Below, in pieces: positions 28,201 through 37,496 of a stretch of DNA of 64,000 nucleotides. Where the stretch lies: the sequence record OQ703618.1, one strand, 5' to 3'. Both the position numbers and the translations under genes were made by a program. The notes beneath the pieces were generated by a model. The model was not told the origin of the DNA. It saw only the letters and a program-made list of their open reading frames with translations, and searched no databases. How positions within the stretch are numbered: position 1 is the first letter of the stretch; every line of letters starts with the position of its first letter. The DNA comes from Escherichia phage GADS24.

Positions 28201-29310
28201 ATGATTAGTGTAAAAGAAATAGTAGTAGATGCAAAGGATTTAAATAAAGCAATCCCAGTCTCAGAAAGTGCTGGGCAAAGCACTAAAACCGAAACAACTA
28301 CTAAAACTTATGTTGCTCAATTTCCTACAGGAAGAGCAGCCGGAAATGACTCCACAGGAGACTTCCAGGTAACAGACCTTTATAAGAATGGATTATTATT
28401 TACCGCGTACAATATGTCTGCACGCGATTCAGGATCCCTCAGGAATTTACGTCCAGCATATGCCGGCACTTCATCTAATGGTATCATATCAGATTTAACT
28501 GATAATGTGAAAGATGCAGTGACTAAATTCTCTAATGGGTTGCTTCCTGCTGGAGCTAATAAACCTACTATAAATAAAACTCCTGTTGCTAATATACTTT
28601 TGCCACGTTCCAAATCTGATGTTGATACAACTTCACATCGTTTTAATGATATCGGCGATAGCCTTATTACTAAAGGTGGAGGTACTGCTACGGGTGTTTT
28701 AAGTAACATTGCTTCTACTGCAGTTTTTGGTGCATTAGATTCTATTACTCAAGGGCTTATGGCTGATAATAACGAACAGATTTATACGACTTCTCGTAGT
28801 ATGTATGGCGGTGCTGAGAACCGTACTAAAGTCTTTACATGGGATTTAACTCCGCGTTCAACTGAAGACCTTATGGCTATTATAAACATTTACCAGTATT
28901 TTAACTATTTCTCATATGGTGAGACCGGTAAATCACAGTACGCCCAAGAGATTAAAAGTTATTTAGACGAATGGTACCGTTCAACGTTTATTGAGCCTAT
29001 GACGCCAGACGATGCAGTAAAAAATAAGACATTGTTTGAAAAGATTACTGCGTCATTAACAAATGTATTAGTTGTAAGCAACCCTACAATTTGGATGGTT
29101 AAAAACTTTGGTTATACGTCTAAATTTGATGGATTAACTGATGTATTTGGCCCATGTCAAATTCAAAGCGTACGTTTTGATAAAACTCCAAACGGACAAT
29201 TTAATGGACTCGCTGTTGCTCCTAACTTACCGTCAACATTTACGTTAGAGATAACAATGCGAGAAATTATTACATTAAACCGTTCTTCACTTTATGCGGG
29301 GACTTTCTAA
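28201..29310 (+). CDS. 48: Baseplate-tail tube junction protein gp48
   Basis: 369 aa, T4 synteny. Confidence 0.9.
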   Translation: MISVKEIVVDAKDLNKAIPVSESAGQSTKTETTTKTYVAQFPTGRAAGNDSTGDFQVTDLYKNGLLFTAYNMSARDSGSLRNLRPAYAGTSSNGIISDLTDNVKDAVTKFSNGLLPAGANKPTINKTPVANILLPRSKSDVDTTSHRFNDIGDSLITKGGGTATGVLSNIASTAVFGALDSITQGLMADNNEQIYTTSRSMYGGAENRTKVFTWDLTPRSTEDLMAIINIYQYFNYFSYGETGKSQYAQEIKSYLDEWYRSTFIEPMTPDDAVKNKTLFEKITASLTNVLVVSNPTIWMVKNFGYTSKFDGLTDVFGPCQIQSVRFDKTPNGQFNGLAVAPNLPSTFTLEITMREIITLNRSSLYAGTF

Positions 29311-30272
29311 TGTACTCTTTAGAAGAATTTAATAACCAAGCTATAAATGCAGATTTCCAACGAAACAATATGTTTAGTTGTGTATTTGCTACTACACCAT
29401 CGACTAAATCATCTTCACTAATTTCGTCAATTGGTAGTTTTGCTTATAATAACTTAGGGTTGAATTCTGATTGGTTAGGATTGACTCAAGGTGATATCAA
29501 TCAGGGCGTAACAACCCTGATTACAGCAGGAACACAGAAATTAATTCGAAAATCAGGTGTAAGTAAATATCTGATTGGAGCAATGAGTCAACGTACGGTA
29601 CAAAGCTTGTTAGGTGAGTTCACAGTAGGAGCTTATCTGATAGACTTCTTCAATATGGCATATAATAATACAGGTTTAATGATTTATTCTGTAAAAATGC
29701 CTGAGAACCGATTATCTTATGAAACAGATTTCAACTATAACTCACCGAACATCCGAATTACCGGTCGTGAAATGGACCCGTTAGTAATAAGCTTTAGAAT
29801 GGATTCTGAGGCATCTAACTTTAGAGCAATGCAAGACTGGGTAAACTCAGTCCAAGACCCTGTAACAGGTCTTCGTGCTTTACCACAAGACGTCGAAGCA
29901 GATATTCAGGTTAATTTACATGCACGAAATGGTTTACCACATACCGCTGTCATGTTCACCGGATGTATTCCTGTTAGTGTCTCTTCTCCTGAGTTAACGT
30001 ATGATGGTGATAATCAGATAACAGTTTTTGATGTAACATTTGCTTATCGCGTTATGCAATCAGGTGCTGTAAATAGACAGGCTGCTTTAGAATGGCTGGA
30101 ATCAGGACTTATTAGTAGTGTTTCAGGAATGTTTGGAAATAATCAGAATGATTCTGGTCTAGGAAGCGCAGTATCAAGACTTTCTAGATTAGGTGGGACT
30201 GCTGGAGGTGTGTCTAATATAAACACATTGACAGGTGTGGTGAATTCTGCGTCAAGAGTTTTAGGACTATAA
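29310..30272 (+). CDS. 54: Baseplate-tail tube initiator gp54
   Basis: 320 aa, same length as T4 gp54. Confidence 0.9.
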   Translation: MYSLEEFNNQAINADFQRNNMFSCVFATTPSTKSSSLISSIGSFAYNNLGLNSDWLGLTQGDINQGVTTLITAGTQKLIRKSGVSKYLIGAMSQRTVQSLLGEFTVGAYLIDFFNMAYNNTGLMIYSVKMPENRLSYETDFNYNSPNIRITGREMDPLVISFRMDSEASNFRAMQDWVNSVQDPVTGLRALPQDVEADIQVNLHARNGLPHTAVMFTGCIPVSVSSPELTYDGDNQITVFDVTFAYRVMQSGAVNRQAALEWLESGLISSVSGMFGNNQNDSGLGSAVSRLSRLGGTAGGVSNINTLTGVVNSASRVLGL

Positions 30273-30279
30273 GAAAAAG

Positions 30280-30296
30280 GGAGACAACGTCTCCCT
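30280..30296. terminator. Bidirectional hairpin GGGAGAC-aac-GUCUCCC between gene 54 and the convergent minus-strand gene
   Basis: 7-bp stem flanked by A-run and T-run. Confidence 0.7.
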
Positions 30297-30304
30297 TTAG
30301 GGGT

Positions 30305-30598
30305 TTATTTACGGAATGAAAGGAATGCCGGTGCTCGGAATGGAGTATCATCTTTAGAGTATTTAACTAATACGACCATTGGTACCTCTGTTTCTAAATG
30401 ACCTGTCACTACACCCATAAAAATTTGATCAGTGTGCTCAGGGTCACGAAAGTTTTTAAGAGGTTCCATAGCAATATGGAATGCACCTGGGAATACTCGA
30501 TTCAATTCGTCAATCACAGCTTCGTTAAAAACATCATCCGCTGGGATAGCATCTTCAACTACTAGTTCTTGACCATTAAAGCGAAGCATAGATTTCAT
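30305..30598 (-). CDS. Hypothetical protein downstream of alt
   Basis: 97 aa from the internal Met that follows the early-promoter-like element and a GAGGA ribosome-binding site; the 121-aa track ORF extends into alt. Confidence 0.55.
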   Translation of the reverse strand: MKSMLRFNGQELVVEDAIPADDVFNEAVIDELNRVFPGAFHIAMEPLKNFRDPEHTDQIFMGVVTGHLETEVPMVVLVKYSKDDTPFRAPAFLSFRK

Positions 30599-30627
30599 AA
30601 CGTTTTCCTCATGTTGTTGATGGGATG

Positions 30628-30657
30628 ATAGTATCACACATCCATGTGTTTGTAAAC
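30628..30657 (-). promoter_or_regulatory. Early-type promoter (GTTTAC / TGATACTAT family)
   Basis: Same conserved element followed by GAGGAAA and ATG. Confidence 0.6.
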
Positions 30658-32744
30658 TATCCTTGGACAAATTTAAACGGAACTGATTCTAAATCCATTA
30701 AAGATGCTAACAATTTCAATCCTTTAGGAGCACTAGTTTTTTCTACAAATGAGGAGAACGATACCGGCTCATCTGATTCGATTTCACCCGTCATAGCAAC
30801 CACCTCGCCTGTTTCCATGAGAACATCACCATCGTAAATGACAGCTTCGTCCAACTGGTCCGAGGACATGACTTCAGCTTGAATAAATTTAAGGTTGGAT
30901 TCTAAACCTGCACCAGTGTCAGATGACGCATCTGTAATTTTATTTATCTGCAAGAGAATGCCTCTAGGCAAAATAATTTCTTGCTCATTAGGGTGATTAC
31001 TCAACTGTCCCGGATAAATCACGTTAACTTTATGGGCGCCATCAATAGCCCATCCAACGTTAACACGGATTTGTTCTGGTGCATGCATAGCTGTTCTTAC
31101 TTGGCTAGGAGAAATAGTAACACCTTCGTCATTATTATCAATGTTAAGCTCTTTGCGAACTTCTTCAGGAGCAAGTCCAAGGGCAACGTTCTCTTTAAAC
31201 CCGCCGAAAATAATAGGAGCTAGTGAAGTGGAAACATAGTTTCTGAAGTAGAATACCTTATTTTTAACCATTGCTTCGTAAATAGGCATTCTGATAGACT
31301 GAGCTCTATATAACGTTAGTCCTTCAGGTAAACGGTCTCCATTTAAAAACGCTGAATCAAGACCATCAATAGCGCGTTTAACTTCATCTTCATCTGCAAC
31401 ATCGTAAAAATCCGGTTTATAACGACCTAACAACATATTATTGATATCGATATACGCAGAAGAGGCATATTCACGAATAGCTCGTTTTTCAGCAACAGAG
31501 TATTGTTTAGGGTCCCGATTCATTGTTATATTAAAGGTGCCTCTAGCCGATTCTCGTGCATAAGTATACATCACATTAGACAAGAACGCTGATTTACGTT
31601 GTTTCCAAGTTCTTTCAGATACTTCAGCTAAAACGTCGTCAGGCAGTTGGAAATTATCGCGTCTAAAATCTTCAAACCATTCGTCTTTAATAGAGTCTGC
31701 AATTTCATTTGCAGCTTCAACAAAAGCAGCTAATGCTTTAACAGATGTTGTTTTTTCGGTTTTAATTTTCTTAGCAAACTTTTCTAAAGTCGGCTTAATA
31801 ACACTACCATAAGAAACTTCATCGGCAAATTTAAAGGATTCATCAATACGATTATAAATCTTATTTTCGATATCAGCAACTAAAGTGCCTTTTGCTGTGG
31901 ACGATGCTTGAGCTAGTACAATTTCATATGCTTCAGGAAGTAATTCGGCTGTAGCTGGGCCACTAACTTCTTTAGCAGAATTTTCATATTTCTGGAATAA
32001 CTCACCTTCTTGGCGGTCAGCTTCTAAAGATTGACTTGCTGCAATAGCACGACGAGAAATTTTAGTGCGAGCAATAACAGGCTTATCTTTACGTTTTTCT
32101 TCTACAGCAGCAATAGAACCAGCGATAGCCGTTTCTTTGGTGACCTTTTCGCCAGTCTTTTTACTCACATAAACTTCGCCAACATCAGAATCTACTTTCG
32201 TGTACAACTCTGTGTTAATGTTAGGGATGCCTTTAATATCTTCAATGTTGGCATTTTTACGGACCATCATCACATAGGTGTGTTTACCTGTGAATTGATA
32301 CATTGCCGACAATACTTTAAAACGACCACCGGTTTTAGTAGAAACTAAACGAGCAAGAAGAGTTTGAAGTTGCTGTCCGCGTCCTTTCAATTTCTTGGTA
32401 GGGAATCGGAACAGAACTGCATCCATACGAAGAGCTTTAACCTGCTCATATACTGTATTGAAAATGGTGTTGATTGCATCAATAGGAGCAGGACCAAGGC
32501 CATTTTTCAATTCAGCGAGATTACCCTTTTCAGACAGACTCATAATAACAACATGAGCGTATTTGTCGCCAAGTTTAACTTGTTTTACAGCATCGCCTTC
32601 AGAAAGGTAAGAGAATAAGCGAACTACGATGTTTGTATCAACATCACCAATTTTCCAGACTTGCGGAACTTTAGCTTTAGGGTTCAAATTGACGACAGGA
32701 AGACTGCCTTCAGATTCAAACACTTCATTTAATTGTTCAGACAT
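30657..32744 (-). CDS. alt: Alt ADP-ribosyltransferase (packaged in the head)
   Basis: 695 aa; position next to gene 30; C-terminal region carries ART-like motifs (YVSTS, EQE). Confidence 0.85.
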   Translation of the reverse strand: MSEQLNEVFESEGSLPVVNLNPKAKVPQVWKIGDVDTNIVVRLFSYLSEGDAVKQVKLGDKYAHVVIMSLSEKGNLAELKNGLGPAPIDAINTIFNTVYEQVKALRMDAVLFRFPTKKLKGRGQQLQTLLARLVSTKTGGRFKVLSAMYQFTGKHTYVMMVRKNANIEDIKGIPNINTELYTKVDSDVGEVYVSKKTGEKVTKETAIAGSIAAVEEKRKDKPVIARTKISRRAIAASQSLEADRQEGELFQKYENSAKEVSGPATAELLPEAYEIVLAQASSTAKGTLVADIENKIYNRIDESFKFADEVSYGSVIKPTLEKFAKKIKTEKTTSVKALAAFVEAANEIADSIKDEWFEDFRRDNFQLPDDVLAEVSERTWKQRKSAFLSNVMYTYARESARGTFNITMNRDPKQYSVAEKRAIREYASSAYIDINNMLLGRYKPDFYDVADEDEVKRAIDGLDSAFLNGDRLPEGLTLYRAQSIRMPIYEAMVKNKVFYFRNYVSTSLAPIIFGGFKENVALGLAPEEVRKELNIDNNDEGVTISPSQVRTAMHAPEQIRVNVGWAIDGAHKVNVIYPGQLSNHPNEQEIILPRGILLQINKITDASSDTGAGLESNLKFIQAEVMSSDQLDEAVIYDGDVLMETGEVVAMTGEIESDEPVSFSSFVEKTSAPKGLKLLASLMDLESVPFKFVQG

Positions 32745-32786
32745 AGTGTTTTCCTTTTAGTAATAATTTATATTTATGCCAAAAAA

Positions 32787-32800
32787 GAGCCCGAAGGCTC
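32787..32800 (-). terminator. Hairpin GAGCC-CGAA-GGCUC upstream of alt
   Basis: 5-bp stem with tetraloop, followed by a T-run on the minus strand. Confidence 0.55.
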
Positions 32801-32989
32801 TTAATCTACAATCGGGAGCAAAGTACGATAAACTTCAAAATTAGGGCCTTTTTCGTACTTATCAAAATTGTCCATAAAAATACGATAGGAATCATTATTA
32901 GGAAAATCTAATACAATTTGGGAACAAGAGGTGGAAACATTGCGACCATCTTTATTAGCGACAACTACTGTTTCTAAATAAGCTTTCAT
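32801..32989 (-). CDS. Hypothetical 62-aa protein translationally coupled to DNA ligase
   Basis: ATG overlaps the ligase stop (TAATG); followed by a hairpin terminator. Confidence 0.45.
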   Translation of the reverse strand: MKAYLETVVVANKDGRNVSTSCSQIVLDFPNNDSYRIFMDNFDKYEKGPNFEVYRTLLPIVD

Positions 32990-34482
32990 TATAAACCTGT
33001 CTGGGACCACGGTCCAAATACGTCTTCAAATGAATCCGCTTCTGTTTTATCAAAACGGAACCCTTTAATAATTGGAAGGAAAATACCTACAGTACCTTCA
33101 CGGCCTTTAGAATGAACCCAACCATTGCATTCGCAATCGGCGATACGTCCAATTAATTTACCTTCACGAGCTTCTGTCATTAATCGTTCACGGTCTAAAT
33201 CATGACGCTCGTCTAAAGGAATAAGAACCTTTACACCATCAACTGTTTTATGAGTTGTATCTTTAAAACCTGAACCACAATCGGTTGTAATACGACGACA
33301 ACGTGATACGAGTTCGACACCACCTAATTTGTTAGGGTCTTTAGAGTGTTCATAGTATCCTACAACTTCTAAAGCGATATCAATAACTTCTTTAAATTTA
33401 ATTAGGTTCTTAGAGCGTTTGTTTTCCCAATATGAATCACGGTTTTTAAGGATAATACCTTCAAGACCTTGGTCAACATATTTTTTATAAACCACTTTAG
33501 CTTCGTCAAGATTACGAACTAACTGATTTTCAATTGGCTCAATTCGCTTAAAGCCTTCAGCCATATTTTCAAGAGCAGCAAAACGAACATCGTATTTCTG
33601 ACCTTTAATTTTGCCATCAGAATAGACTTCATCTAAAGGAACATAGTCCCAGGCTTGAAGAACCATACCTTCCGCTTCTTTAGGAGAAATAGTCCCTTGA
33701 AGAGATTTATTTGCTAAACCATTTGAAGTGCTACGGTCTGCAACTTGTACTTCTTCGGATTCTTCATTATCACCAAATAAGAACGACAGATCATTTCCTG
33801 AGCTCACAGCCTTTTTAATATCGAATGAATGATAAACTAATTCACCATCGATTAAAACCCCATTAGGGTGTCTTTCACGAGCTTCTTTAGTCATTTCCAT
33901 TAGTTCATCCGCTAATAGAGTAAGACCGTGATATTCGTTACCGGCACGAGAAAAGAATTGAACACCATCATCGCGAACTTCAGCGAAACAACGAGCACCA
34001 TCTGCTTTTAATTGGGCAAATGCAGGCCATTTAATATTTTTAGTAATTAATTTCTCATCATATGCAGATGCTAACATCTGTGGTTGCAATTGAATAAGTC
34101 CAGGCCACACCTTATTCGCGATAGACACTGAAGCACCTACTTCAAGGTCGCGCATCATTACACGACGAAGGACTTCTACATCATCAGGTTTACCATCAGC
34201 TATATACCACATGAGCTCTTTAATTGCAGCATTACCAGTGAGTTTACGAGTGGCTAATGTGAACTCAATAAAATCCAACATGTCATCTAATTCAAGAAGT
34301 CCGTACGCTTGAGACCTTTCACCAGGTCCTGGCCATTTCTTAATATAATACTGGATACCACGTGCATATGTTAAACGATACACACGTTCAAGTAATTTGT
34401 TGTCCTTATTTTTCTTAAGGATTTCTTGTTTTGTTTTAGTAGAACCGATCGCAGCTATTTGGTTTAAAATATCTAAAATCAT
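32989..34482 (-). CDS. 30: ATP-dependent DNA ligase
   Basis: 497 aa; adenylation motif KADGARC. Confidence 0.95.
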   Translation of the reverse strand: MILDILNQIAAIGSTKTKQEILKKNKDNKLLERVYRLTYARGIQYYIKKWPGPGERSQAYGLLELDDMLDFIEFTLATRKLTGNAAIKELMWYIADGKPDDVEVLRRVMMRDLEVGASVSIANKVWPGLIQLQPQMLASAYDEKLITKNIKWPAFAQLKADGARCFAEVRDDGVQFFSRAGNEYHGLTLLADELMEMTKEARERHPNGVLIDGELVYHSFDIKKAVSSGNDLSFLFGDNEESEEVQVADRSTSNGLANKSLQGTISPKEAEGMVLQAWDYVPLDEVYSDGKIKGQKYDVRFAALENMAEGFKRIEPIENQLVRNLDEAKVVYKKYVDQGLEGIILKNRDSYWENKRSKNLIKFKEVIDIALEVVGYYEHSKDPNKLGGVELVSRCRRITTDCGSGFKDTTHKTVDGVKVLIPLDERHDLDRERLMTEAREGKLIGRIADCECNGWVHSKGREGTVGIFLPIIKGFRFDKTEADSFEDVFGPWSQTGL

Positions 34483-34748
34483 TTGATGTCCTCGATTTTG
34501 GTTACGGTTCTATTATAAGCCACTTCATCTAGAAGCGATTTCAGCGTTTTCTGATAAGTGGTAATCCATTTACCAAGACCTTCAACATAATATTCTGAAA
34601 TGTAGATGAACCCTTGTTCAACACACTCTTTAAATATTTCTGCGTCTTTTACTGAACGAAACACTGGCCAATCTCGAAAGAACATGTTAACGTGACCGTA
34701 GTCACGCGTTGTGTTTTTGCCATCTGTAATATCATGAACTACAAACAT
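34479..34748 (-). CDS. Hypothetical protein (30.1 position)
   Basis: 89-aa ORF, synteny. Confidence 0.6.
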   Translation of the reverse strand: MFVVHDITDGKNTTRDYGHVNMFFRDWPVFRSVKDAEIFKECVEQGFIYISEYYVEGLGKWITTYQKTLKSLLDEVAYNRTVTKIEDIK

Positions 34749-34757
34749 AATTAACCC

Positions 34758-35573
34758 TTAACAATTTACAGACCAAGTCCATTTGGACGAATCTAAAGGA
34801 AAGTTTTGAATCGTCCACCATGGCTGCATATTGGTTGGTCCTGGGGTTCGCCAGGTATACGGATTCGACGGAGTGCCAATTTGATTAGGCCATGCACCTG
34901 GACTTGTTGCACCAGATTCTTTAAGCAAATCCGCCAATCGTTTTAAAAGGTCTTCACGATCTGAATCTGAATTACGCTCTGGTGGAACCAAACGAGATTC
35001 AATATCATCCCATGTGTGTACGCGTTGTGCAGTACGAGGAATATCATCACGTTCACCACGAGCCAACCAATAAATCGGTACATTAAGAATTTCTGCTGCA
35101 TGGTCACAGTGATGAGCTAAATCGTCAACGTAACAAATCACGTTATATTTTGTTTTAGCTAGTTCGAATAATTGTTCCTTTGAAGAATCATGTCCACACA
35201 TCATTACTTCAGAAAAGGCGCCTGGGAACAAAGCATTCAAATTAAATTGTCTATTCAATCGAGCATCAATTGAATCACCTAGCGCCGTCACGGCTACAAA
35301 ATTATAGTCTTCTTTTAGTTTATTGATAACTCGAAGAGCATCCGAATAAGGCGCTAAGTAACGAATAAAATCAGAGCGATTATATTTTTCTATTAATTGT
35401 TTACCGAGGTTATCGTCGGTATTGAATAGTTTACCAGGAGAAATAAATTTTTCGTCCTGAATCATTTTTAAAATATGTTCTAATGGAAGATTATATTTTT
35501 GGGCAAAATAAGGAAGTCCAGATTGCCAGCTTAAACATACACCATCAATATCGGTCAAAATAGTAGGCTTCAT
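34758..35573 (-). CDS. Hypothetical protein (30.2 position), possible HAD-like fold
   Basis: 271 aa; N-terminal DIDGV motif. Confidence 0.6.
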   Translation of the reverse strand: MKPTILTDIDGVCLSWQSGLPYFAQKYNLPLEHILKMIQDEKFISPGKLFNTDDNLGKQLIEKYNRSDFIRYLAPYSDALRVINKLKEDYNFVAVTALGDSIDARLNRQFNLNALFPGAFSEVMMCGHDSSKEQLFELAKTKYNVICYVDDLAHHCDHAAEILNVPIYWLARGERDDIPRTAQRVHTWDDIESRLVPPERNSDSDREDLLKRLADLLKESGATSPGAWPNQIGTPSNPYTWRTPGPTNMQPWWTIQNFPLDSSKWTWSVNC

Positions 35574-36037
35574 AGAGAGTCTCTTAATAGGTTTAACACA
35601 TCAATAAATTCAGCTTCGGTTAGTATTGTATCATCTTTTGTTAGACCACTAGCCATGCTGTGCTTCAAAATTTTTCCTTTAGAGGCTTGTAATGCATCGC
35701 GAAAGCCCTTGTTTTGGATCGCTGCTTCAAAATATGCATTTGTATACAACTCTTTCCATGCTGCAGAGTATCTTGAAAAGGGAACTCCAATCCAGAAGAG
35801 GGTCCCACGGTCCTGAGCTCTAGCATAAGCTCGCCCAGCTTGTTGGGCGGCAAGCCCGGATAACCCAAATATACGTCTTTGTTGTTCAACATTTTTCACC
35901 TTACATCCTTGGAGAAATCCTTCAAGACCTCCGAATTGAATACCATCCATAACAAAAGGCCATTGGGCGAAATTACTTAATGCGCATGACGGCCATTTGA
36001 AATTGCTTCTTATTTCTAATTCACACATCTTTAACAC
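35570..36037 (-). CDS. NADAR/YbiA-family (DUF1768-like) protein
   Basis: 155 aa; motif ALSNFAQWPF...EGFLQGCKV resembles the YbiA/NADAR signature FSNFAAWPI...EHYFQAQKF. Confidence 0.6.
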   Translation of the reverse strand: MLKMCELEIRSNFKWPSCALSNFAQWPFVMDGIQFGGLEGFLQGCKVKNVEQQRRIFGLSGLAAQQAGRAYARAQDRGTLFWIGVPFSRYSAAWKELYTNAYFEAAIQNKGFRDALQASKGKILKHSMASGLTKDDTILTEAEFIDVLNLLRDSL

Positions 36038-36239
36038 TTATAATTTCAACATCGGCCCAATGACCGTATCCAGGTATACGGTCTTCGATAGATAAATTTC
36101 CGTCATTTTTAGGCATTTTAATTGACGTAACGTATGGTTCTAAACGGTTTTCTGCATAATATGGAAAAACGTCTGTTACACGATAAGTAACTTCGATCAT
36201 TTCCGTACCAAACAATTTCTGGATTAATTTATTCAACAT
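36021..36239 (-). CDS. Hypothetical protein
   Basis: 72-aa ORF in the co-directional operon. Confidence 0.5.
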   Translation of the reverse strand: MLNKLIQKLFGTEMIEVTYRVTDVFPYYAENRLEPYVTSIKMPKNDGNLSIEDRIPGYGHWADVEIISVKDV

Positions 36240-36426
36240 GTTTCAACCCTTTAATAGGAGATAACTCTTTACCCATACGTATGTCAGAAGTCCAATCAAC
36301 CCATTGAACAGCATACGCTTCATTGATAATTCCAGCGGCGGTTTTAAATTCAGGGAGAACTTTAAAAATCACCCCAGGAATTCCAACACCTTTTAATTGG
36401 ACTGTTTGTGCTATTAAAAATTTCAT
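36229..36426 (-). CDS. Hypothetical protein
   Basis: 65-aa ORF in the co-directional operon. Confidence 0.45.
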   Translation of the reverse strand: MKFLIAQTVQLKGVGIPGVIFKVLPEFKTAAGIINEAYAVQWVDWTSDIRMGKELSPIKGLKHVE

Positions 36427-36480
36427 ATTTTTCCACTTACTAAAGAAATCATTATACTCTAATCCATCCTTGGATGTAAA

Positions 36481-37095
36481 CTACTTAATGAAATTAATTT
36501 CTACCGGATGAACAACAGGTTGAGCAGTGATATATTGAGTAATTGCTTTCATGACTAGAGCTTCAGAACCAGGATTTTTCTCAACGAATTCACGTGCTTG
36601 GTTATGAGCTTCAAGTTCACTTAGTAAACCACTTCGTTGGCATCCACGGTCTTGAGTACCTTGTTCAGATAAAAAGACGACGATGTATTTTTCATCGTCA
36701 TACGGTTTAGACGGTTGAGCAAATGTTCCTTTACTTCCAAAAGGAGAGTTATGACGCCACATCACGCCGTGAGGAGTTTCAACCTTCGTATATTCATGCG
36801 GGCCATTTTTCTTAGTTTCTTGATGTGGAACTTCGTGGACCTTAGGGTTAGGACATTCAATAAAATGCTCATCTAAATCGGTCGAGAATATTAAAGTAAA
36901 ACAATTACTAAATTTACCAACACCTGCCTGATAAATTTTACCTTCAGAAGTTCTAATTTCACAAACTGAGCCAGCATCAGTAACTTCTAAAACTTCAAAA
37001 GGCTCGATAAGGTCATATGAGAACATGTTTTTAAGGCGTGGAGTAATATCCCCATTTTTAAAATTCATTTTATAAAAAGTATTAACTTTAAACAT
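36481..37095 (-). CDS. Hypothetical protein
   Basis: 204-aa ORF followed upstream by a hairpin terminator. Confidence 0.6.
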   Translation of the reverse strand: MFKVNTFYKMNFKNGDITPRLKNMFSYDLIEPFEVLEVTDAGSVCEIRTSEGKIYQAGVGKFSNCFTLIFSTDLDEHFIECPNPKVHEVPHQETKKNGPHEYTKVETPHGVMWRHNSPFGSKGTFAQPSKPYDDEKYIVVFLSEQGTQDRGCQRSGLLSELEAHNQAREFVEKNPGSEALVMKAITQYITAQPVVHPVEINFIK

Positions 37096-37130: not shown

Positions 37131-37496
37131 TTAGATATCAAATTCGTTAAGAACTACATCAAAGATTGCTTCGAGATGTTCAGGTTTAGCTCGGTTACTC
37201 AGGATATGACGAATCCAAGTTTTAACCAGAAGTTTACGATTAACACCATTCCAGCAAGGATGAGTACCTAAATCACGTTGACGGAAATCATCATCTAATG
37301 CAATTTTGAAGTTGGAACCTTCCATTGTGATTGAAACCGTGATGCCATTTTCAAATCGCATATAAACATAATTAGGAGTCATATACTGCTCAATTTCACA
37401 TACTGAACCATTTTTATGCTTCCACAAACAAACCATATCGATAGAACCAGCGATACCGTTAGAAACATATTTACGTTCGAAGTTGATGTAGTTCAT
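37131..37496 (-). CDS. Hypothetical protein
   Basis: 121-aa ORF with its own early-promoter-like element. Confidence 0.6.
   Translation of the reverse strand: MNYINFERKYVSNGIAGSIDMVCLWKHKNGSVCEIEQYMTPNYVYMRFENGITVSITMEGSNFKIALDDDFRQRDLGTHPCWNGVNRKLLVKTWIRHILSNRAKPEHLEAIFDVVLNEFDI

Follow-up and report, generated by a model that had tools for sequence, protein, structure and literature searches.

The gene examined here, adfN, lies on the minus strand of the window, by which we mean the whole 64,000-nucleotide stretch of Escherichia phage GADS24 (OQ703618.1) that was analysed (Table 1). A first-pass annotation had pointed to an ORF at 35570-36037 with an LSNFAQWPF sequence and a downstream E-x-F-x-Q motif. 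This minus-strand ORF is present, with 155 aa counted from the GTG at 36037, and both motifs are found in it: CALSNFAQWPF is followed 11 residues on by LEGFLQGCK. However, the start is likely to be the ATG at 36028 rather than the GTG, giving a protein of 152 aa. This choice is supported by alignment with gene 30.3 of T4 and RB69, yields the T4 numbering for E36 and K43, and gives the same 8-nt overlap with the stop of the preceding 30.4 homologue that is seen in T4. An internal out-of-frame ORF within adfN, 30.3', is weakly conserved. Records closely related to the window still call adfN a "hypothetical protein".

Table 1. Features of the adfN-alt interval, in coordinates of the window
Feature	Position	Strand	Remarks
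alt, packaged protein ADP-ribosyltransferase	30657..32744	-	PF03496 E=1.7e-27; PHROG 802 E=2.9e-261
Late-promoter-like box ATAAATATAAATT	32765..32777	-	20 nt upstream of alt ATG; aligns with canonical T4 TATAAATA
Hairpin AAGAGCC-UUCG-GGCUCUU, then U-tract	32781..32802	-	just after alt.1; -11.2 kcal/mol, z=-2.7
Gene 30.2 homologue, HAD-fold hydrolase	34758..35573	-	ATG overlaps adfN stop as ATGA; context
adfN (gene 30.3 orthologue)	35570..36028	-	152 aa + stop; predicted NADAR-superfamily ADP-ribosyl-guanine glycohydrolase, putative anti-DarTG1 factor
C-terminal helix, residues 138-152	35573..35617	-	intact here; abolished in RB69 by an inserted T (1 nt)
H123 codon, last beta-strand	35660..35662	-	invariant, 58 homologues; replaces YbiA-family Glu / DarG1-family Asp
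E36-G-F-L-Q-G-C-K43, catalytic Glu and phosphate-binding Lys	35900..35923	-	invariant, 58 homologues
LSNFAQWPF motif, residues 17-25	35954..35980	-	aligned E. coli YbiA segment: FSNFAAWPI
Gene 30.4 homologue	36021..36239	-	8-nt overlap of its stop with the adfN start; context

The genes flanking adfN in the window are homologues of T4 genes 30.4 and 30.2, with no ADP-ribosyltransferase (ART) gene adjacent, and the surrounding gene order matches that of T4 and RB69. The gene is probably carried in one transcription unit, 30.5-30.4-adfN-30.2-30.1-30-alt.1, whose members overlap at their ends. Thus, expression of adfN would precede or accompany DNA replication. A single feature, a consensus promoter match at 36480-36451, suggests that adfN is transcribed early. 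The hairpin after alt.1 was folded directly, as a generic terminator scan had not listed 32781..32802. This structure also exists in T4, with compensatory changes, and the 30.x-30-alt.1 transcription unit probably ends there.

Family, fold and catalytic residues

The Pfam model PF08010 (Phage_30_3) matches the adfN product over profile positions 1-138 of 138 (E=1.2e-68), with a score of 229.7 bits where the gathering cut-off is 36 bits, and PHROG 652 matches it with E=2.7e-50. When the protein is used as a single sequence, the Pfam NADAR model PF08719 gives no match even at E<=10, phmmer against the PDB returns nothing at E<=10, and NCBIfam yields no match. At the level of the family, PF08719 is matched by 23 of the 58 members at E<=0.1 (best E=1.5e-7), and YbiA (PDB 2b3w) is found by a profile of the adfN family with E=0.006, the match spanning LSNF...EGFLQ..K. 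The link between the adfN protein and the Pfam NADAR model is transitive, by way of the family profile and the fold, and not direct.

The first-pass annotation had called for a structure prediction to be compared with YbiA. The AlphaFold2 model, for which the homologue alignment was built without the T4 sequence, has a pLDDT of 93 and a pTM of 0.88. It includes strands at residues 3-6, 25-27, 30-32, 76-79, 82-85 and 120-123, six main helices, and a C-terminal helix at 138-151. Foldseek matches the model to YbiA 2b3w at probability 1.00 (E=4e-5, TM 0.66, 18% identity). The only PDB entries reaching a probability of at least 0.98 are 2b3w, 8bau (a Phytophthora NADAR with ADP-ribose) and 8bat (the Geobacter lovleyi DarG1-NADAR), and the next match stands at 0.04. 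The protein consists of the core domain alone, as its 152 residues begin the first strand at residue 3 and the N-terminal extension is absent.

NADAR enzymes carry a conserved catalytic Glu/Lys pair, represented by E43 and K50 in PnNADAR and by E36 and K43 in T4 AdfN (PMC11543638, PMC11825919). A His in the last strand is a signature of gp30.3-type phage NADARs (PMC11125620, PMC11543638). In the LSNFAQWPF region, residues A16, L17, S18, N19, F20 and F25 are invariant within the family, and the FSNFA...EHYFQAQK region of E. coli YbiA (2b3w) aligns with LSNFA...EGFLQ..K of the adfN protein. Taken together, the profile matches and the model indicate that the adfN product belongs to the NADAR superfamily. 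Its PF08010 match and last-strand His further identify it as a gp30.3-type phage NADAR, predicted to be YbiA-like in fold only. The NADAR assignment of the gp30.3 family goes back to de Souza and Aravind (2012), as cited in later papers. The earlier description of the protein as "NADAR/YbiA-like" therefore holds for the superfamily and for the YbiA fold. It does not extend to the YbiA subfamily, since the last-strand Glu of E. coli YbiA, a protein with a housekeeping role, is His123 here.

Relationship to AdfN of T4 and RB69

The T4 protein gp30.3, or AdfN(T4) (NP_049816; Johannesman et al., Nat Commun 2025; Schuller et al. 2023; Toxins 2024), is 95% identical in amino acid sequence across all 152 residues. 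E36, K43, H123, the C-terminal helix and the location between 30.4 and 30.2 are common to both phages, and the 8-nt and 4-nt gene overlaps around adfN are the same. The window protein differs from that of T4 by seven conservative substitutions (S2C, R11K, S67A, L80I, P89A, V120I and I125M), two of which, V120I and I125M, flank H123. At the nucleotide level, adfN and T4 30.3 are 92.6% identical and differ at 23 synonymous and 7 nonsynonymous codons, whereas alt and ligase show 66-72% nucleotide identity to T4. Because synonymous differences predominate and identity is so much higher than for alt and ligase, the sequences indicate that adfN is under purifying selection.

The window belongs to a Mosigvirus close to RB69, whereas T4 falls on the Tequatrovirus side. 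The 7.2 kb around adfN in RB69 are 96.6% identical to the window, and the naturally truncated RB69 gp30.3 (NP_861905) has 96% protein identity over 137 common residues. In RB69 30.3, an extra T shifts the reading frame and the last 15 residues, which form the C-terminal helix, are gone. C-terminal truncation reduces activity, and RB69 is sensitive to DarTG1 (PMC11825919). In contrast, the window gene lacks the insertion and is full-length. This absence of the RB69-type inactivating frameshift means that the allele is intact.

Gene 30.3 of T4 was renamed adfN in 2025, with AdfN standing for anti-DarT factor NADAR. [quoted passage not shown] DNA modified by DarT1 loses its ADP-ribose when treated with purified T4 AdfN, and the E36A and K43A changes impair the enzyme (PMC11825919). 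In vitro, the T4 NADAR cleaves G-ADPr but not T-ADPr (PMC11125620), and it does not cleave C-ADPr (PMC12945103). In addition, a transposon screen found 30.3/adfN to be conditionally essential on DarTG1 hosts (bioRxiv 10.1101/2025.11.20.689424).

We conclude that the minus-strand ORF at 35570-36028 is, with little room for doubt, the orthologue of T4 gp30.3/AdfN, a core-only NADAR-fold N-glycosidase acting against DarTG1. By analogy, the window allele would be expected to behave as T4 AdfN does. The earlier suggestion of a plausible anti-DarT factor that removes ADP-ribose from guanine agrees with what the 95%-identical T4 orthologue has been demonstrated to do on both counts (PMC11825919, PMC11125620). 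In the proposed mechanism, host DarT1, of the DarTG1 system, would attach ADP-ribose to guanine N2 as the phage DNA replicates. AdfN would then hydrolyse the ribosyl-guanine bond, releasing ADP-ribose and restoring a usable template, and it is proposed that the phage thereby escapes abortive infection. E36 is predicted to position the distal ribose and K43 to bind the diphosphate, while H123 may stand in for the last-strand acidic residue.

The DarG1 antitoxin NADAR (BC4488 family; G. lovleyi 8bat, E. coli C7) has the same fold and Glu/Lys catalytic pair as the phage protein, and its substrate, the guanine-N2-ADP-ribose made by DarT1, is also that of T4-type AdfN. However, DarG1 has a last-strand Asp, an N-terminal extension and a gene located beside DarT1, whereas the phage protein has a His at this position, lacks the extension and is encoded without a toxin gene alongside. 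The two also differ in that T4 AdfN does not neutralise DarT1 when E. coli is uninfected, and its rescue of non-T-even phages is only weak (PMC11125620, PMC11825919). A free-standing eraser is thus not the full explanation. As the T4-type protein fully works only during T-even infection, a phage-encoded potentiating factor is implied (PMC11825919). AdfN(Bas32), AdfN(Bas60), AdfA and AdfM (Tk.4) are, like AdfN(T4), phage counter-measures against DarT toxins. The Bas32 and Bas60 proteins represent NADAR clades other than the T4 type and do not need T-even infection to function, AdfA is not a NADAR, and AdfM is a macrodomain directed against DarTG2 (thymine-ADPr).

Alternative substrates and partners

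The main substrate of AdfN in vivo could be guanine-ADP-ribose in RNA, or soluble ADP-ribose-derived immune signals or toxins, instead of DNA. Proposals of such substrates for phage NADARs predate the DarT work (Iyer et al.), and removal of G-ADPr from RNA in vitro has been reported for all four NADAR families, the T4 enzyme included (PMC12945103). We nevertheless consider this reading unlikely, as the sole demonstrated phenotype is DarTG1 counter-defence with a lost DNA ADP-ribose signal (PMC11825919), and no soluble-signal substrate has been demonstrated.

Linkage between adfN and the neighbouring gene 30.2 persists in T4-like phages that are more distant and have no alt nearby (loci L037, L038 and L040), and the gene 30.2 product has an invariant DxD and resembles 5'(3')-deoxyribonucleotidases. 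It is quite improbable that gene 30.2 supplies the T-even potentiating factor of AdfN or, as a second reading, that guanine-ADP-ribose in RNA or the marks of other ADP-ribosylating defences are further targets of AdfN. As a candidate for the missing co-factor, gp30.2 is unsupported, and 30.3/adfN is the one DarTG1 hit named in the text of the T4 transposon screen (bioRxiv 10.1101/2025.11.20.689424).

The first-pass annotation had placed Alt about 3 kb from the NADAR-like gene in the same early region and had proposed that the phage both writes and erases ADP-ribose. The ORF at 30657-32744 on the minus strand is an Alt orthologue, which PHROG 802 ("Alt-like RNA polymerase ADP-ribosyltransferase") matches over its full length, and the distance is correct, with 2.8 kb between the adfN stop (35570) and the alt start (32744). 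However, "early region" is imprecise, because the hairpin and the late-promoter-like box precede alt. These two elements set adfN and alt apart together with five genes as counted, namely 30.2, 30.1, 30, alt.1 and, upstream, 30.4.

Alt makes arginine-ADP-ribose on proteins. If AdfN were the eraser partner of Alt (and of ModA/ModB), it would remove this modification from host or phage proteins, or clear off-target marks. Consistent with such a role, alt and adfN lie on the same strand within 5.4 kb. A co-occurrence of NADAR genes with ARTs in T4-like phages, where they are expressed together, was noted in 2022 (Iyer et al. 2022, PMC9503650).

Among 80 phage loci with a gp30.3-type NADAR, however, an Alt-like ART is found within 8 kb in only 15, each of which shows the complete T-even gene order. 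Searches with tblastn and an HMM from 15 Alt homologues returned the same 15 loci, although very divergent ARTs could be missed, and no Alt-like ART was found near the NADAR gene in 47 distant loci having at least 7 kb on both sides. Clustering of the ORFs within 3 kb of the NADAR gene in 63 distant phage loci revealed no real family in more than 7 loci, and thus no conserved operon partner outside T-even synteny. Larger clusters of 18, 10 and 8 loci proved to be spurious ORFs overlapping the NADAR gene itself. Conserved adjacency or co-transcription, as expected of an Alt-NADAR module, is not supported, given the few linked loci and the hairpin and late-promoter box that divide alt from the upstream unit.

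Furthermore, the NADAR activities reported in the literature consulted all act on nucleobase N-glycosidic bonds, and the T4 adfN-deletion phenotype is specific to DarTG1 hosts (PMC11825919; bioRxiv 10.1101/2025.11.20.689424). We therefore regard a partnership of AdfN with Alt as highly improbable. What stands of the earlier proposal is the presence of two unrelated activities in one genome. The implied functional pairing is not supported, given the limited linkage and the difference in target, which is protein arginine for Alt and guanine-ADP-ribose for the T4 NADAR. Alt would instead be a separate virion-packaged enzyme, driven by a late promoter and acting on host proteins, that takes no part in the AdfN mechanism.

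It is scarcely credible that the protein is a housekeeping N-glycosidase of the YbiA type, with adfN serving as an auxiliary metabolic gene to detoxify intermediates of the riboflavin pathway, because although E. coli YbiA is the best structural match and JGI names some homologues "YbiA (DUF1768 family)", the YbiA-defining last-strand Glu is replaced by an invariant His, the T4 clade is nearest the DarG1 NADARs in published trees (PMC11825919), and Pfam and PHROG searches indicate that riboflavin genes are absent nearby.

The anti-DarT function of gp30.3/AdfN, which we favour for the window gene, is already published, as are the family, the NADAR assignment, the enzymology (2023-2026) and the biological role (2025). 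As this activity has been reported for T4, the gene described here is not a discovery. The practical value of our analysis lies in annotating a gene whose counterparts in related records are now labelled as hypothetical. It also leads to a prediction: this Mosigvirus, whose adfN is intact in contrast to that of the closely related RB69, should form plaques on hosts with DarTG1.

The adfN gene and its NADAR product

The reverse-strand open reading frame at 35570-36037, which the first-pass annotation described as YbiA/NADAR-like, is real and carries both motifs (LSNFAQWPF and E-x-F-x-Q) on which that description rested. Its product covers the whole of Pfam profile PF08010 ('Bacteriophage protein GP30.3', E = 1.2e-68), matches PHROG 652, and is 95% and 96% identical in amino acid sequence to gp30.3 of phages T4 and RB69, respectively. 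Alignment with these two proteins places the start at ATG 36028 (152 amino acids) rather than at the GTG further upstream. From this predicted start, adfN overlaps the 30.4 stop codon by 8 nucleotides and the 30.2 start codon by 4 nucleotides (ATGA), and T4 has identical overlaps around 30.3. An out-of-frame ORF inside adfN corresponds to an annotated T4 gene. Its open stretch (76 codons) is intact in 11 of the 13 closest relatives examined and interrupted in RB69 and L013 (L numbers denote loci among 80 fetched phage loci encoding a gp30.3-type NADAR), and the start methionine is absent in L003 and L009. Thus, its conservation as a gene is doubtful.

Features in and around the adfN region
Feature	Position	Strand	Remarks
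alt	30657-32744	-	
Late-promoter-like box ATAAATATAAATT	32765-32777	-	20 nt before alt ATG; aligns with T4 late-promoter box
Hairpin, then U-tract	32781-32802	-	between alt.1 and alt; -11.2 kcal/mol, z = -2.7
Gene 30.2 homologue	34758-35573	-	HAD-superfamily hydrolase (AlphaFold2 model, invariant D8 and D10); 'hypothetical' in related records
adfN (30.3)	35570-36028	-	
ORF inside adfN	35665-35892	-	75 codons, out of frame; T4 gene 30.3'
Sigma-70-like match	36480-36451		11/12 positions
204-aa ORF	36481-37095	-	PHROG 17531
30.7 homologue	37131-37496		

Searched with the single AdfN sequence, neither the Pfam NADAR/DUF1768 model named as a check in the first-pass annotation (even at E ≤ 10) nor the PDB gave a match, but the NADAR relationship is solid when the family profile and the fold are considered. 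A 59-member family profile matches E. coli YbiA (2b3w; E = 0.006) across LSNFA...EGFLQ..K. In an alignment rebuilt from 58 members with the T4 row removed, every member scanned individually matches PF08010, and 23 of the 58 also match PF08719 (best E = 1.5e-7). Several homologues carry the JGI label 'YbiA (DUF1768 family)'. The AlphaFold2 model of AdfN, built from the family alignment (pLDDT 93, pTM 0.88), has three convincing Foldseek matches in the PDB, each with a probability of at least 0.98: YbiA, 8bau (a Phytophthora NADAR bound to ADP-ribose), and 8bat (the DarT1-associated NADAR of Geobacter lovleyi); the fourth match scores 0.04. Residues E36, K43 and H123 do not vary in the 58-member alignment. 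The model places H123 in its last beta-strand (residues 120-123), where the YbiA family has Glu and the DarG1 family Asp (PMC11125620, PMC11543638). Together with the profile and fold matches, these features establish AdfN as a NADAR of the gp30.3 subfamily, so the superfamily assignment holds and the YbiA subfamily assignment does not.

The relation between Alt and AdfN

Alt itself was correctly assigned (PF03496, E = 1.7e-27; PHROG 802, full-length, E = 2.9e-261). Its proposed pairing with AdfN as writer and eraser of ADP-ribose marks is unsupported, given the hairpin and late box between the genes, the lack of linkage in distant loci, and the different chemistry. Among the 80 loci, tblastn and an HMM built from Alt homologues both detect an Alt-like ADP-ribosyltransferase (ART) within 8 kb in just 15, all of them T-even-like genomes in which the entire block is preserved. 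The 63 more distant loci (36-44% identity) include 47 with flanks of 7 kb or more on each side, and an Alt-like gene is absent from all 47; across the 63, no genuine gene family adjoins the NADAR gene in more than 7. In seven loci of related T-even-like phages (L005, L006, L011-L014 and L063), two full-length Alt-like ART genes stand in tandem, at about positions 11.1-15.4 kb of the locus (6.3-10.4 kb in L006), whereas the window, RB69 and T4 have a single alt, accompanied in T4 only by the remnants alt.-1 and alt.-2.

Alt forms arginine-linked ADP-ribose on proteins. The NADAR activities reported in the cited literature (including PMC11125620 and PMC12945103) are all on nucleobase linkages, and therefore the chemistry also counts against a pairing. 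The juxtaposition is not new, because the expression of NADARs together with ARTs in T4-like phages was pointed out by Iyer et al. 2022 (PMC9503650).

T4 carries an equivalent of the hairpin before alt, with compensatory changes, followed by a canonical late-promoter box, TATAAATA; a generic terminator scan overlooked the hairpin in the window. This arrangement is consistent with the T4 record, which describes Alt as a protein carried in the capsid and delivered together with the DNA. We infer that Alt acts early but would be made late, from its own transcription unit. For 30.5 through alt.1, a possible promoter is the best sigma-70-like site ahead of adfN, a consensus match only.

Genome setting

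Many T4-like phages of Escherichia and Shigella in the genus Mosigvirus, among them AV117, SF and JN02, share 97-98% identity with the 5.4-kb region, and 29001-36242 is 96.6% identical to RB69. All genes lie on the minus strand in the order alt.-3, alt, alt.1, 30 (DNA ligase), 30.1, 30.2, 30.3, 30.4, which is also the order in the annotated records of T4 and RB69. Similarity to both phages is interrupted at 36243-37088, which looks like a small variable cassette within the 30.x region. The 204-aa ORF there occupies the place of 30.6 in those phages, has no Pfam match, and is found in only one of the 80 related loci (L004).

DarTG1 resistance and the window allele

The guess that this protein counters DarT was correct, and its function is already published for the T4 orthologue, which makes the finding an ordinary one. 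Gene 30.3, renamed adfN, was mapped with RB69 x T2/T4 chimeras as the source of T-even DarTG1 resistance (Johannesman et al., Nat Commun 2025, PMC11825919). In that study, T4 and T2 no longer formed plaques on DarTG1 hosts once adfN was deleted, adfN expression rescued RB69, purified T4 AdfN stripped ADP-ribose off DarT1-modified DNA, and E36A and K43A weakened the protein. The T4 enzyme cleaves guanine-ADP-ribose and not thymine-ADP-ribose (PMC11125620) or cytosine-ADP-ribose (PMC12945103), and a T4 transposon screen found 30.3/adfN conditionally essential on DarTG1 (bioRxiv 10.1101/2025.11.20.689424). Because of this published function, the window AdfN would be an orphan antitoxin-like eraser that hydrolyses the guanine-N2-to-ribose bond put on phage DNA by DarT1.

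Uninfected E. coli is not protected from DarT1 by T4 AdfN, and non-T-even phages gain only a weak benefit from it, which the authors of that study read as the need for an additional T-even factor (PMC11825919). It is conceivable that this factor is the product of gene 30.2, whose ATG overlaps the adfN stop codon (ATGA); neither the present analysis nor the text of the transposon screen (bioRxiv 10.1101/2025.11.20.689424) supports the idea. The 30.2 protein has an N-terminal DIDGV motif with invariant D8 and D10, and matches Pfam HAD_2 with just E = 0.02. Its model (pLDDT 84, C-terminal ~50 aa disordered) matches 5'(3')-deoxyribonucleotidases and other HAD hydrolases with a probability of 1.00.

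Conservation in adfN is far higher than in its flanks. Its identity to T4 is 92.6% in nucleotide sequence and 95% in amino acid sequence (23 synonymous versus 7 nonsynonymous codon changes), whereas alt and ligase (30657-34482) align with T4 at just 66-72%. Likewise, in L003 and L005-L007, AdfN identity is 94-96% against 42-46% for Alt and 63-64% for ligase. The 30.7 homologue shows the same pattern (96-97% amino acid identity in the three of these loci that have it). For adfN, the pattern fits strong purifying selection and possibly recombinational exchange; taken with 30.7, it suggests either mosaic exchange or unusually strong constraint.

In RB69, the closest well-studied relative, a one-base T insertion costs gp30.3 its last 15 residues, and with them the C-terminal helix, and renders the phage DarTG1-sensitive (PMC11825919). 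The window adfN is without this insertion, and its product keeps the helix in full (residues 138-151, from alignments and the model). Thus, we predict that the allele is functional and that the phage would be DarTG1-resistant.
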